Shown: positions 21,738-56,936 of the stretch, in pieces
Layout of the letters: each line of letters starts with the position of its first letter
Numbering within the stretch: position 1 is the stretch's first letter
IMG/VR virus record: IMGVR_UViG_3300031369_000002
Span: 1 to 64,000 of that record
Strand: one strand, 5' to 3'
Length of the DNA: 64,000 nt
Source: a virus
The notes under the pieces: model-generated
What the model was told of the DNA's origin: nothing
What the model saw: only the letters and a program-made list of their open reading frames with translations
The model's database searches: none
Translations under genes and position numbers: made by a program

Positions 21738-21770
21738 CTTATACCTAAAAAATAATGAAATATTAAGTTA
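21738..21770 (-). promoter_or_regulatory. Class II promoter TAAC-N20-AGGTATAA
   Basis: One of 8 copies with an exact 20-bp spacing (see findings). Confidence 0.65.
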
Positions 21771-21831
21771 TCATTTTAAATTTTTCTCAAATAAAAATAA
21801 CAGGATATAAAAATACACCCTGTCACTCCTC

Positions 21832-22026
21832 TTATTTCTTAATCTGTACCAATTCTAAAACTCGCTGATATTTTTTACGCAAAATAAAACCACTTATACT
21901 AATTAATATAATAGACAAACATATTAATACAGATATAAATGGATTACCATTATGATGTATAGTTTGATACACATCTCTTAAAAATATTATGAATACAAGA
22001 CCTAGTATAAAACTTAATACTTTCAT
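21832..22026 (-). CDS. Small two-TM membrane protein
   Basis: 64 aa, two hydrophobic helices, basic tail, GGAGG RBS. Confidence 0.65.
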   Translation of the reverse strand: MKVLSFILGLVFIIFLRDVYQTIHHNGNPFISVLICLSIILISISGFILRKKYQRVLELVQIKK

Positions 22027-22044
22027 AATAACCTCCTAAAGGCA

Positions 22045-22160
22045 TAATAATGGAGCCAATAGATGAGGATATTGGCCCCTATAAGATAAATTCAATTTAA
22101 AGGAGAATCATTTTTAATGACTCTGAACCTCATCACTTAAGTACTTTATTTTGAATATGT
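22045..22160 (-). ncRNA. Candidate structured sRNA/leader carrying the antisense of the early-gene 5' leader
   Basis: Class I promoter at 22166-22194; contains UGAUUCUCCUUUAAAUUGAAUUUAUCUUAU; terminal hairpin at 22052-22079. Confidence 0.55.
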
Positions 22161-22165
22161 GCCTA

Positions 22166-22194
22166 ATTATATCCCTAAAGAATACACATGTCAA
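22166..22194 (-). promoter_or_regulatory. Class I promoter TTGACAtgtgta..-N17-TATAAT
   Basis: Perfect -35/-10 consensus with 17-bp spacer. Confidence 0.8.
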
Positions 22195-32418: not shown

Positions 32419-32463
32419 TTTATCTTATGTTCTTATTATATAATAATCCTTTACATGTGTCAA
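32419..32463 (-). promoter_or_regulatory. Class I promoter plus conserved ATAAGATAAA leader
   Basis: TTGACAcatgtaaagg..-N17-TATAAT. Confidence 0.85.
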
Positions 32464-33614: not shown

Positions 33615-33659
33615 TTTATCTTATGTTTACATTATATAATAAACCTTTACACATGTCAA
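33615..33659 (-). promoter_or_regulatory. Class I promoter plus leader
   Basis: TTGACAtgtgtaaagg..-N17-TATAAT-N6-ATAAGATAAA. Confidence 0.85.
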
Positions 33660-34370: not shown

Positions 34371-34415
34371 TTTATCTTATGATTTAATTATATACCTATG
34401 CTTTACACATGTCAA
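34371..34415 (-). promoter_or_regulatory. Class I promoter plus leader
   Basis: TTGACAtgtgtaaag..-N17-TATAAT. Confidence 0.85.
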
Positions 34416-35483: not shown

Positions 35484-35529
35484 TTTATCTTACATTCTTA
35501 TTGTATAATATTCCTTGACATATGTCAAG
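35484..35529 (-). promoter_or_regulatory. Class I promoter with perfect palindrome CTTGACATATGTCAAG
   Basis: TTGACA-N17-TACAAT, leader GTAAGATAAA. Confidence 0.85.
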
Positions 35530-38056: not shown

Positions 38057-38156
38057 AAAATTCCCCTTTCACGCACTAAAGGATATTCCTTTAGGGAATA
38101 CCCTCAACGCTGTTTAATTAATTAATATTGCCAATTACAAATATGATTATACACAT

Positions 38157-38185
38157 ATTATATAAACAGCCCATACACTTGTCAA
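38157..38185 (-). promoter_or_regulatory. Class I-like promoter driving an ORF-less AU-rich leader/sRNA
   Basis: TTGACAagtgta..-N17-TATAAT; hairpin at 38078-38105. Confidence 0.7.
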
Positions 38186-38996: not shown

Positions 38997-39121
38997 TAAA
39001 GAAATAGCAGGATGTTTATCCCACTATTTCCCCCATTAATTACATTTAATTATTTGCTTTCAAACATGGATATAAAATATTAAATTAACATATATTATTA
39101 TTTTAAGGTCATTACCTTAAT
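38997..39121 (-). ncRNA. Candidate AU-rich small RNA
   Basis: TTGACAcatgtaa (39151-56)-N17-TAATCT with TG; terminator at 39001-39030; no RBS-linked ORF. Confidence 0.45.
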
Positions 39122-39172
39122 AAAAAGAGATTACCACAGTTAATTACATGTGTCAAGCCTACACCTTTATAC

Positions 39173-40501: not shown

Positions 40502-40919
40502 GACCTTTCTATCTTAGTATTTAATTAAAGCAACCATTTAATCCTTTTTAAGTATTTTCTATAGCACCATACTTTTAATTGCATACAGTTAATACAATAA
40601 ATATACCCATCCCCTTTATTGACCTCATTACACTTAGCTATTAACCAATAAACATATAACCTTATTCGTATGTACTTAAAGCGTCTTTTTATTTTTCTCT
40701 TACAATTATTTATTCTCATTCTTATTACTCTCAAAATATAAGTTATGCTCATCCTTAAAAGATAGTTTATTAAATAGCTCCTCAGTTACATACAACATAG
40801 AATCTCCTACAGTAGTACCATTAACGTCCATCTTAACATATAATCTGAAGCTTGCAGGTAAAGCCTCTTTCTTATATATCCTAAATTTAATCTCTGACAT
40901 AACAACACTCCTTTTTATC

Positions 40920-41516
40920 TTAGCATTTAAAATCATCATCCAAAAGAGTCATAGCATAAGGAAAGCCCTCCCAGTTATCCACTCCCGCATTTTCTAAAGC
41001 ATTAAGCGTGGCCTCAGACTTTCTTAAACCCTTAACTTCCTTTTCTAACCTCTCTATCCACTCCATATGAGTGAATTTAGCATTTAAAAGCTCTTTATTA
41101 TTAGACCTTAACACCAGATTATCCTCTCTTACTTTTTGATAGCTTTCTATTAAAGCCTCATCTAAAACAGTTAAGTCTTTAAGCTCTAATACTATCTGAA
41201 TAAACATGGCATCCTTTAATTTTTGAAATATATTTAATTCAGCAAAAGGAACCAAACAAGCATGTTGTTTCTTTTCTCGATCAGTGACAGGAGAATACTC
41301 CCAACCATCTTTTAATTTGGCCTCCATCCACACATCATGGGCCTCATAAACAGTAATCTTAGGATTATCTAAAACCTCTTCCACAGTATATATTACCTGA
41401 CTCTTTCTTTCCTCAGACAAATTATCATAAGTCTCAATACAATCCTCACTATTATAAATACGTATAACCTGTAACAAATTAAAAGCTATCTTTGCTATAT
41501 ATTCTTTATCCATCAA
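40920..41516 (-). CDS. RyR-domain protein with coiled-coil C-terminus
   Basis: HDVWMEAKLKDGWEYS...KKQHACLVPFAEL...KLKD matches the RyR repeat motif. Confidence 0.75.
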   Translation of the reverse strand: MMDKEYIAKIAFNLLQVIRIYNSEDCIETYDNLSEERKSQVIYTVEEVLDNPKITVYEAHDVWMEAKLKDGWEYSPVTDREKKQHACLVPFAELNIFQKLKDAMFIQIVLELKDLTVLDEALIESYQKVREDNLVLRSNNKELLNAKFTHMEWIERLEKEVKGLRKSEATLNALENAGVDNWEGFPYAMTLLDDDFKC

Positions 41517-44718: not shown

Positions 44719-44764
44719 TTTATCTTATGATTTAATTATACACCTATCCTTGACACATGTCAAG
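44719..44764 (-). promoter_or_regulatory. Class I promoter plus leader; palindrome CTTGACA-TG-TGTCAAG
   Basis: TTGACA-N17-TATAAT-N6-ATAAGATAAA. Confidence 0.85.
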
Positions 44765-46719: not shown

Positions 46720-46764
46720 TTTATCTTATGGTTATATATTATCATGACACTTTACACATGTCAA
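46720..46764 (-). promoter_or_regulatory. Class I promoter plus leader
   Basis: TTGACAtgtgtaaag..-N17-TAATAT, ATAAGATAAA. Confidence 0.8.
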
Positions 46765-48157: not shown

Positions 48158-48294
48158 AAAGCCCCTATATACCACCAAGTCCGACCTCAGTTATATAGGG
48201 GCTTTTACCTTATTATTTAGGTTTTTTAGTTTGGGTCGGATTCAAACCAAAAAACCTACTCAGGTATAATATCAAATTTTAGATTTATAGTCAA
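48158..48294 (-). promoter_or_regulatory. Promoter and two-hairpin leader of the Bro gene, with complementary loops
   Basis: TTGACT-N17-TATTAT; hairpins at 48218-48258 and 48158-48205; loops UCCGACC / GGUCGGA. Confidence 0.7.
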
Positions 48295-48965: not shown

Positions 48966-48984
48966 TTCATTCCTCCTTAGAATA

Positions 48985-49240
48985 AATAAAGCCTCTTATT
49001 TTATGTTAAAAGTCAGAGTAACATAAAACAAAAGACTATTTTCATCATGTATTATTATATTTAAGGTTTTAAACTTGACTCTGACAACAACTTTAAAACC
49101 TTAGATACTTTAAATAAAATAAGCCTTCTCCTTGCCTATAGTTGTGATAGGACACGCATTTTCGTCGAAGCAGAAAACTTAAAGACCGCAAGTGGTTTAC
49201 ACAAGCTAGATTACTAAAATCTCTTCGATAACTTCATCCT
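48985..49240 (-). ncRNA. Structured RNA/leader of about 255-275 nt with kissing-loop hairpins
   Basis: TTGACT (49270-75)-N17-TATATT; GC-richer 5' domain; hairpins at 49062-49103 and 48989-49037 with loops GUCAGAGU / ACUCUGAC. Confidence 0.55.
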
Positions 49241-53535: not shown

Positions 53536-53580
53536 TTTATCTTATGTATCTATATTAACATTATCCTTTACATATGTCAA
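53536..53580 (-). promoter_or_regulatory. Class I promoter plus leader
   Basis: TTGACAtatgtaaagg..-N17-TAATAT, ATAAGATAAA. Confidence 0.8.
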
Positions 53581-56061: not shown

Positions 56062-56936
56062 AATTTAATTCTCCCATCTTCCATAGGTCTATCAATAGGC
56101 TTTTCCGCTTCTTTAGCAGCAGGACAAAAAGCCTTTACGGGGCATTGATAGCAATTAGTTTTATCATAATTCAAAAGCCATTTACCAGTATGAAGAGAAC
56201 TACCTATCACCCCTATAGCTTTTTTAACTCTCTCATATAACTTTTTAAAATCCTCACTTTCAAAAGACAAAGTAACTACCTTATCTTTTCTTAAAGGTAC
56301 GATAAAACCACATTTAGTCACTTTCCACCCTGCCAAAGTACCCATCATGGTATAATAACAGATTTGATCCTCATCCATAAATCTGGCTGAACTGGTAACT
56401 TTAAGATCATAAACTACTTTATCATCCTCATCGTACAAATCTAAAACACCAGTTAAGAAAACATTTTTATAAGCTTTTAATTTTATTTTCCATTTAGTTT
56501 CATTTCTTAAAGCCTTCTCAGTAAAACCAAAATCAATAAAAACATCCTCTATAGCCTGAGCATTAACTACAGACTTCTCTCGCATATTATTAATATCCTG
56601 AGCATTTAAAGGAATAACATTATGCTTTTTTAAATACAAATCAAATAGCTTTGTAGCTATAGACTGCATATAGCCTATAATTAAGTTACCATCTTCATCT
56701 CTACCATTAGCAAGCCATTCCTCAAGACAAGAATGGCCTACAGAACCTAAACAAAAATTCCTCTCATTAAAATCCTTAGGCTTCCAATACATTATATTTT
56801 GCATAAAATATCTACCTGGACAATACTCCAAAGACTTAAAAGAACTATAAGACAACTTTAAAGGTCTATTATTAAAATAATTTATCTTATAATTATAATC
56901 TTTAGAATCTAAATTTTTTACCTCTAAATACACCAA
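56058..56936 (-). CDS. PD-(D/E)XK exonuclease, AddB/Cas4-like with Fe-S cysteines
   Basis: SYSS...YCP, G...H, E...G.LD...DLK, Q..YY and CYQCPVKAFC motifs. Confidence 0.85.
   Translation of the reverse strand: MVYLEVKNLDSKDYNYKINYFNNRPLKLSYSSFKSLEYCPGRYFMQNIMYWKPKDFNERNFCLGSVGHSCLEEWLANGRDEDGNLIIGYMQSIATKLFDLYLKKHNVIPLNAQDINNMREKSVVNAQAIEDVFIDFGFTEKALRNETKWKIKLKAYKNVFLTGVLDLYDEDDKVVYDLKVTSSARFMDEDQICYYTMMGTLAGWKVTKCGFIVPLRKDKVVTLSFESEDFKKLYERVKKAIGVIGSSLHTGKWLLNYDKTNCYQCPVKAFCPAAKEAEKPIDRPMEDGRIKL

Follow-up and report, generated by a model that had tools for sequence, protein, structure and literature searches.

In satellite phage P4, the early PLE transcript has a leader from which the CI immunity RNA is cut, and this RNA pairs with seqA and seqC. 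In phages P1 and P7, the c4 antisense RNA acts on the ant (icd-ant) mRNA. In Listeria, terminated transcripts of the SreA and SreB SAM riboswitches pair with the prfA mRNA, and in phage T5 the initial transcribed sequence downstream of early promoters has an established role that involves promoter escape or a DNA-binding factor. We compare a locus of an uncultured phage with these systems, with the RegB and RegA proteins of phage T4 and with the type I toxin mRNAs, and we draw on established knowledge for each comparison.

The DNA analyzed here, referred to as the window, is the first 64 kb of the 88,665-bp virus record of this phage. An earlier note on this DNA had drawn attention to a minus-strand RNA that carries the complement of a 5' tag and Shine-Dalgarno (SD) sequence shared by the phage's own early (class I) transcription units, and had proposed that this one RNA silences the whole regulon in trans. 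The observation is confirmed by our analysis, and the trans interpretation is partly supported. We regard the locus as a 5' leader that is structured and conserved and in which the anti-leader segment is suggestive. Our best explanation, which we hold tentatively and at a little less than an even chance, is that it acts in cis, as a structured leader or attenuator, on a small membrane-protein gene, and that it probably arose from an inverted class-I-type leader.

If the RNA acted in trans, it would be like P4 CI RNA in being a regulatory RNA that comes from an early 5' leader and is complementary to short repeats in the phage's own early transcripts, with early shut-off or immunity as the result. 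P4 CI RNA differs in that it has two targets in the same operon and acts by premature termination after RNase processing, whereas here there are nine separate units that carry the tag at the extreme 5' end together with the SD. Likewise, c4 is a trans-encoded phage RNA in which two short separated complementary segments occlude a ribosome-binding site, but it has one target and lies upstream in the same operon, whereas a nine-member promoter/leader family is proposed here. The best functional analogue of a dual-function reading, in which an attenuator-ended cis leader doubles as a base-pairing RNA, is Listeria SreA/SreB. Unlike those transcripts, the leader studied here matches no ligand-binding fold or family among the Rfam 15 covariance models (best scores 16-23 bits against thresholds of 39-57, all from unrelated families), and termination at its hairpin 3 is a candidate event. 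T4 RegB and RegA share the logic of shutting off many early mRNAs through a common feature of the initiation region (GGAG in the SD, AU-rich TIRs), but they are protein effectors, whereas an RNA is proposed here. The type I toxin mRNAs (hok, tisB, aapA1), the nearest systems if the locus acts in cis, are alike in that a small membrane-protein gene stands behind a long leader, with the SD and start codon predicted to be sequestered in the present case; the 64-aa protein encoded here, with two transmembrane (TM) segments, is longer than is typical of such toxins. The T5 PN25, P25 and P26 downstream regions are alike in that early promoters for host RNAP share sequence from +1 at a fixed position. 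They differ in that they act at the DNA/RNAP level without an antisense partner, and they could explain the tag but not its inverted copy.

In a literature search, no RNA turned up that targets a 5' tag common to the early units of the phage that encodes it. Should the pairing be used, this phage would to our knowledge be the first to control a whole class of its own early transcripts by one RNA directed against a common 5' tag. Such an RNA would be a counterpart of T4 RegA/RegB and a multi-target extension of P4 CI and P1 c4; with its toehold and its masked anti-SD, it would also provide a natural and compact design for a tag and its anti-tag. If no use is made of the pairing, the locus is a conserved structured leader before a small membrane protein, of which this phage lineage seems to use several, and it illustrates the reuse of promoter-leader modules within one genome.

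The phage DNA was found in salt-marsh, wetland and marine-sediment metagenomes. It has a GC content of about 31%, and its GC skew lies between -0.3 and -0.45 throughout, which indicates that all genes are on the minus strand. A blastn search of the phage collection in distant mode gave no match to this phage, and the nearest isolates found by tblastn with the clamp loader are less than 40% identical; thus, the phage has no cultured relative. Scans with a clamp-loader alignment led to relatives at 50% identity with a GC content of 45-48%, and these have neither class I promoters nor tags and so offer nothing for covariation. Close relatives, at 93-97% identity, are two IMG/VR contigs and contigs from three further metagenome studies, and these were used to assess conservation.

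Class I units have a fixed layout. The promoter consists of TTGACAYRTGT and, at N17 spacing, TAWWAT, and is followed by N7, the tag (A/G)TAAGATAAA, an A/T spacer, the SD and ATG. There are nine such units in the genome, seven of them in the window, and the tag begins exactly 7 nt after the -10 element in all nine promoters that fit TTGACAYRTGT-(12 nt)-TAWWAT. On the gene strand, the nonamer TAAGATAAA (read on the plus strand as TTTATCTTA) occurs nine times in the window, and seven of these copies are promoter-linked, exactly where the earlier note had placed them. Counting both orientations, the window contains 10 matches to the nonamer compared to 4.1 expected. The tags and the promoter palindromes discussed below are as follows.

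32419..32427, minus strand: class I tag TAAGATAAA of a unit with a 56-aa ORF.
33615..33623, minus strand: class I tag of a unit headed by an amidoligase-family gene.
34371..34379, minus strand: class I tag before a 213-aa ORFan.
35484..35492, minus strand: class I tag before a 71-aa ORFan, with G at +1 and a perfect promoter palindrome, TTGACATATGTCAA.
44719..44727, minus strand: class I tag before a 122-aa ORFan, with a perfect palindrome in the promoter.
46720..46728, minus strand: class I tag before a 180-aa ORFan, in the leader that is most like the inverted copy.
53536..53544, minus strand: class I tag before a 102-aa ORFan, with the best accessibility-corrected pairing energy, -12.5 kcal/mol.
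Genome positions 69993 and 80207: tags of two further class I units, outside the window.
40914-40922 and 56881-56889, minus strand: tag copies without a class I promoter.
32450-32463, 33646-33659, 34402-34415, 46751-46764 and 53567-53580: the other palindromes at class I -35 elements.

The two copies without a promoter, at 40914 and 56881, are either internal tags or chance matches; the one at 40914-40922 is directly followed by AAGGAG and then ATG. Most of the first genes of class I units are small ORFans, together with one amidoligase, which would fit early genes, and the term "early" is inferred from the host-type promoters. The class I -35 element lies within a palindrome, cTTGACAyrTGTCAAGg, that is perfect at two promoters (35515-35528 and 44750-44763) and that, judged by its sequence, looks like an operator for a dimeric regulator. 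Two more promoters of the TTGACAnnTGT type occur on the minus strand at 38100-38185 and 39040-39156 with long tagless leaders, one of which holds a GC-containing hairpin (GGGUAUUCCCUAAAGGAAUAUCC).

The inverted copy of the class I leader lies within a transcription unit whose features are listed here.

22529-22191, minus strand: 112-aa ORFan, 3' of the clamp-loader gene and 5' of the studied leader.
22166..22194, minus strand: promoter P22194, with TTGACA (22194-22189), a 17-nt spacer and TATAAT (22171-22166), matching the sigma-70/sigmaA-type consensus at 12 of 12 positions.
22027..22158, minus strand: structured, conserved 5' leader RNA of about 132 nt, with its predicted +1 at A22158 or A22160.
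22090..22156, minus strand: composite hairpin, with helices P1a (22156-22151/22095-22090), P1b (22148-22144/22102-22098) and P2 (22124-22116/22112-22104).
22128..22134, minus strand: GAUGAGG, a candidate tertiary contact with the hairpin-3 loop, -9.3 kcal/mol as a duplex.
22081..22110, minus strand: anti-leader segment, in which tag, A/T spacer and SD of a class I leader appear as their reverse complement; the tag/anti-tag pair is TAAGATAAA / UUUAUCUUA.
22052..22079, minus strand: hairpin 3, with a 10-bp stem containing 5 G-C pairs, the loop UCCUCAUC, a folding energy of -13.8 kcal/mol and the tail AUUAUUAUGCC.
22032..22037, minus strand: SD AGGAGG of the 64-aa ORF, 25 nt 3' of hairpin 3.
21832..22026, minus strand: 64-aa ORF encoding two hydrophobic segments and a basic C-terminus, without a family match.
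21793..21830, minus strand: strong intrinsic terminator that closes the P22194 unit (-18.2 kcal/mol, z-score -5.1), with the long U-run UUAUUUUUAUUU.

Promoter P22194 carries the class I family extension (TTGACAtgTGT) and only the left half of the class I -35 palindrome. Its -35 hexamer contains the TGA stop codon (22193-22191) of the 112-aa ORF that precedes it, so transcripts from upstream also enter the leader region. Neither the 64-aa nor the 112-aa protein gave a lead in the protein atlas, Pfam or PHROGs. A search with the 64-aa protein found matches only in the two IMG/VR contigs already known as relatives. The 112-aa protein has homologues (P0001-P0003) that are 84-95% identical, and a metagenome scan with the alignment of this protein found none. 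Upstream of a 236-aa gene, at 21738-21775 on the minus strand, TAAC-N20-AGGTATAA fits the class II promoter pattern, which makes the P22194 unit an early-type island between class II units.

Within the window, the nonamer occurs on the opposite strand once, at 22082-22090, and the whole genome contains one more such copy, at 82361 in a coding region and without an SD. By itself, the opposite-strand nonamer is at chance level (2 copies compared to 2.2 expected in the genome). A nonamer that is followed within 5-16 nt by GGAG or GAGG is expected 0.03 times per genome (P=0.03), and a nonamer with both SD and ATG was seen in none of 300 dinucleotide shuffles. Read on the plus strand, the 22082-22090 nonamer is followed by ttcaatttaa-AGGAGA-atcattttta-ATG. 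The likeness extends beyond the nonamer: in the window variant, the anti-leader shares 12 nt with the 34379, 53544 and 69993 leaders, and in relative G001 it shares ATAAGATAAA and TTTAAAGGAGA with the 46728-type leader (10 and 11 identical nt). Given this improbable array of tag and SD, and given the runs shared with particular leaders, we conclude that the segment is either homologous to a class I leader or selected to match one; from its sequence, the inverted module is unlikely to be a product of chance.

The predicted fold divides the anti-leader into two parts. Nucleotides 22110-22091 form the 3' arm of P1/P2, whereas 22090-22081 (UUUAUCUUAU), the complement of the tag with a perfect 10/10 match, lie in a single-stranded linker. 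In the minimum free energy (MFE) structure, cis pairing takes up 20 of the 23 nt in the anti-spacer/anti-SD part (22112-22090), and the MFE fold of the leader has a z-score of -2.6. GAUGAGG sits in a 19-nt 5' bulge of the composite hairpin and has an alternative partner in the linker, AUCUUAU, through G-U pairs. What the earlier note had read from the sequence is reproduced here, with all coordinates exact. The only inverted copy in the window, with its spacer and SD, lies at 22081-22110 to the base; on the plus strand, the only promoter candidate for it is a 9/12 match of a kind found at background frequency; and the copy is inside the minus-strand transcript of the same-family promoter at 22194-22166. 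The two proposed helices, AUUCAA..UAAAG/CUUUA..UUGAAU and AGAGUCAUU/AAUGAUUCU, are both recovered in the computed MFE structure together with hairpin 3, GAUGAGG (22134-22128) is complementary without mismatch, over 7 nt, to the loop CCUCAUC (22068-22062), and the anti-SD half is masked while the tag complement UUUAUCUUAU is predicted to be accessible, at an opening cost of about 1 kcal/mol.

Hairpin 3 bears on whether this RNA ends before the 64-aa ORF. Its tail AUUAUUAUGCC has 5 U in 8 nt with at most 2 consecutive; by a lenient rule only (5 T in 8), hairpin 3 is terminator-like. The 64-aa ORF has an AGGAGG SD and, in the relatives, an in-frame 12-nt insertion, which indicate that it is a real coding gene, and no other promoter-like site occurs on its strand between 22158 and 22027. 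Therefore, hairpin 3 must be read through. Given this and given the weakness of its U-tract compared to the long U-run of the unit's own terminator, hairpin 3 is probably not an efficient terminator, and the 22158-22027 region is first of all a 5' UTR. The discrete RNA of about 110 nt that had been proposed is thus not supported, since AUUAUUAUGCC makes a poor U-tract and expression of the 64-aa ORF, 25 nt downstream, depends on read-through; partial termination at hairpin 3 may nevertheless yield an RNA of about 110 nt. In the full leader, the predicted probability of being unpaired is 0.001-0.002 for the SD and 0.001-0.007 for the SD and AUG together, in the window and relative variants. A paired SD and AUG, as modeled here, is what one would typically see for small membrane proteins under tight control.

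Two other leaders of this phage have a similar layout.

48158-48294 and 48981-49105, minus strand: two leaders with 7-nt loop-loop complements.

The complements are UCCGACC/GGUCGGA in the leader at 48258-48158 (minus strand) and GUCAGAG/CUCUGAC in the leader at 49103-48990 (minus strand), and both leaders have a terminator-like hairpin followed by an AU-rich tail and an SD. Thus, at least two other leaders share with the P22194 leader a structured element followed by an AU-rich linker, then a terminator-like hairpin with a loop that matches a 7-mer further upstream, and last an SD; these two leaders are a reason to favor a cis-acting role. A crude genome-wide test for an excess of such loop-complement ("kissing") pairs was not significant (11 compared to 7.0 expected, P=0.076), so we treat the GAUGAGG/loop tertiary contact as a lead only. 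A further candidate, at 51947-51918, has a loop with an 8-nt complement 115 nt upstream.

We compared the leader among the relatives. For the DNA-run variants, which come from four runs, conservation refers to the variants listed, the most divergent of which, X9 and X12, are partly covered. Genome-wide identity to the IMG/VR relative is 93.7%, and 15% of 4-fold degenerate sites differ (40/259). Over 134 nt, the leader differs from that of the relative by 4 substitutions and 3 gap columns, and the 84 nt from 22027 to 22110, which contain the SD, hairpin 3, the linker and the anti-SD, show 0 substitutions and one 1-nt deletion. The absence of substitutions in this segment compared to 15% at 4-fold sites indicates that the leader is under purifying selection and is no decaying relic. 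Hairpin 3 is 100% conserved in the relatives. Helices P2 and P1b are kept, P2 by way of an A-U to G-U change and a loop insertion, whereas P1a is lost and GAUGAGGUGAA can pair with the linker instead; the cis fold is thus only partly conserved. The opening cost of the linker stays near 1 kcal/mol in both the window and the relative variants. The inverted copy is present in every available relative (93-97% identity); both tag and anti-tag are invariant among them, and G001 has no opposite-strand nonamer other than this one. A pattern scan of genome contigs for the tag complement together with the loop gave only scattered chance matches in unrelated bacteria.

To rank possible targets, we used an RNAup-like scan that combines the duplex energy with the opening energies of both partners, applied to the start regions of 145 minus-strand ORFs. 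With uniform targets (-60..+30) and 24-nt windows, the class I leaders are not at the top of the ranking, and the most favorable site of the RNA is its exposed loop UCCUCAUC, placed on the SDs of many genes. With true +1 starts and 36-nt windows, the nine leaders rank 1, 3-8, 10 and 14 of 145, at energies of -8.0 to -12.5 kcal/mol, a ranking that hinges on the target definition and partly restates the complementarity by which the locus was found. Thus, the prediction that the leaders would head such a scan holds with true 5' ends and fails with -60..+30 targets. The expectation that they would score above background is upheld with true 5' ends: the mean for the nine leaders is -9.8 kcal/mol, compared to a mean of -3.6 (sd 1.35, best -9.6) for 122 random natural 114-nt windows of the transcribed strand, none of which pairs with the leaders as well as this RNA does. 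The best hybrid, with the 46720..46728 leader, is -26 kcal/mol over 35 nt. The toehold duplex alone is worth -7 kcal/mol, and invasion of P1/P2 costs nearly what it gains. These calculations suggest that the RNA can pair with nine early leaders, at predicted energies that are modest for silencing.

In the cis-acting explanation that we favor, P22194, the leader of about 132 nt, the gene for the 64-aa two-TM protein and the terminator at 21830-21793 would form a stand-alone early-type unit. Hairpin 3, with its weak U-tract, would pause or partly terminate transcription, and in mRNA that extends past it the membrane-protein gene would have its SD and AUG sequestered, so that the level of a potentially harmful small membrane protein would be kept low or made to depend on conditions. 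The 3' arm of P1/P2 and the linker, which together make up the anti-leader segment, most likely originated when a class-I-type leader, closest to the 46728 type, was built into an inverted repeat at P22194. Since the sequence of the 3' arm dictates that of the 5' arm, all of P1/P2 looks as if a class I leader had been duplicated in inverted orientation. That the RNA is complementary to the nine early leaders would then be a by-product of this inverted origin, and trans regulation would not be required. Several results argue against this explanation. The fold predicted for the window does not need UUUAUCUUAU, yet this segment is a perfect match to the tag and is invariant in the relatives; an inverted tag together with an SD is improbable by chance (P ~0.03); the nine leaders are the best predicted partners of the RNA; helix P1a is lost in the relatives; and the genome-wide excess of loop complements is not significant.

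The perfect, conserved and unpaired tag complement is best accounted for if the P22194 RNA, either attenuated at about 110 nt or as the 5' part of the full mRNA, pairs with the tags and SDs of the nine class I units, a possibility that we consider unlikely but well worth weighing. The free UUUAUCUUAU toehold would pair first and the anti-SD afterwards, and translation or stability would be lowered, giving an early shut-off timer or an immunity circuit; the process could equally run in reverse, with pairing that remodels the leader and switches on the 64-aa gene. Consistent with this, tag, spacer and SD stand in the right order and spacing (P ~0.03, lower with ATG), the anti-leader comes closest to the 46728-type leader (10 and 11 identical nt in G001), where it is also the only opposite-strand copy, and it is under purifying selection. 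The toehold costs about 1 kcal/mol to open in both variants, the nine leaders take ranks 1, 3-8, 10 and 14 of 145 with true 5' ends and are equaled by 0/122 natural windows, and P22194, without the right half of the -35 palindrome, could escape a class I regulator. Nevertheless, the toehold duplex reaches only -7 kcal/mol, and extension would add little because P1/P2 holds the anti-SD. A single RNA would have to act on nine mRNAs whose promoters are equally strong and of its own class, and the weak U-tract and the needed read-through speak against a dedicated sRNA gene. There is also no sign of co-evolution: within G001, the longest runs that anti-leader and leaders have in common are 10-13 nt, and a 17-nt match that would be possible in principle occurs in no single genome. 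The ranking is sensitive to the target definition, and sequence conservation at the start of a transcript can have its reason in promoter escape or in a DNA-binding factor instead of in a use as an RNA handle. We regard as doubtful the specific proposal that one anti-tag RNA, in the leader of a tenth unit with a promoter of this family, pairs with nine tags through a 10-nt toehold and strand invasion, whether for regulon-wide early shut-off or timing or as a sensor of early leaders that activates the membrane protein.

The role of the initial transcribed sequence can also be taken as the whole explanation. In that case, TAAGATAAA at +2..+10 would be a promoter-escape element or the site of a DNA-binding factor from the phage or the host. 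The inverted copy, which lies at +69..+77 relative to P22194, would then be one more operator, or a roadblock, that brings the 64-aa unit under the same factor. The strict N7 distance from the -10 element in all nine promoters, the invariance of the nonamer in the relatives and the operator-like palindrome over the -35 element, which makes protein control of this promoter class plausible, are what one would expect of such a site. We nonetheless judge it improbable: the spacer and SD of the inverted copy are left unexplained, the nonamer site is not palindromic, and a fixed position is equally expected of an RNA 5' tag. Coincidence is less probable again. An AU-rich linker could hold the nonamer by chance (about 2 copies are expected on the strand, and the count of 2 compared to 2.2 is at expectation), CUCCUU is accounted for by P1/P2 pairing so that CUCC could stand in the stem for unrelated reasons, and the finding was selected post hoc. 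It is nevertheless hard to reconcile with the joint arrangement (P ~0.03, and 0/300 shuffles with ATG), with the runs of at least 11 nt common to particular leaders beyond the nonamer, and with the intergenic position of the copy within a unit of the same promoter family. Finally, the tag, the SD (AAAGGAGA) and an ATG 10 nt downstream all occur on the plus strand, as they would in a divergent leader whose transcript starts at 22081 and is translated from a 7-codon ORF at 22118-22141 that is open in the relatives. We give this very little credence, since the plus strand upstream of 22081 has no class I promoter (its -35 and -10 positions read TAATAA and GATATT), the ORF has only 7 codons and all genes of this phage are encoded on the opposite strand. 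The plus-strand mini-ORF at 22118-22141 encodes MTLNLIT, with an N to H change in the relatives, and is probably meaningless because no promoter precedes it.

Two further observations concern the tag in other phages and the ends of this genome. The arrangement TTGACA-N17-TATAAT-N7-TAAGATAAA is also present in unrelated phage contigs (L046, L047, L052, L054 and L064, from IMG/VR 3300045988) and at about 40 further loci of IMG/VR; AT-rich phage promoters may thus carry the nonamer after +1 independently of this lineage, bearing in mind that the search pattern itself forces the motif. One examined unrelated phage family that bears the promoter and tag has no inverted tag copy. An unrelated gut-type phage family has two promoter-and-tag copies per genome, followed by ttaatac, and in another family the sequence continues GAAAGGA. 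An exact 127-bp direct repeat occurs at both ends of the record (genome 1-127 and 88539-88665), and reflects either a terminal redundancy or a circular (or circularly permuted) genome whose assembled ends overlap.
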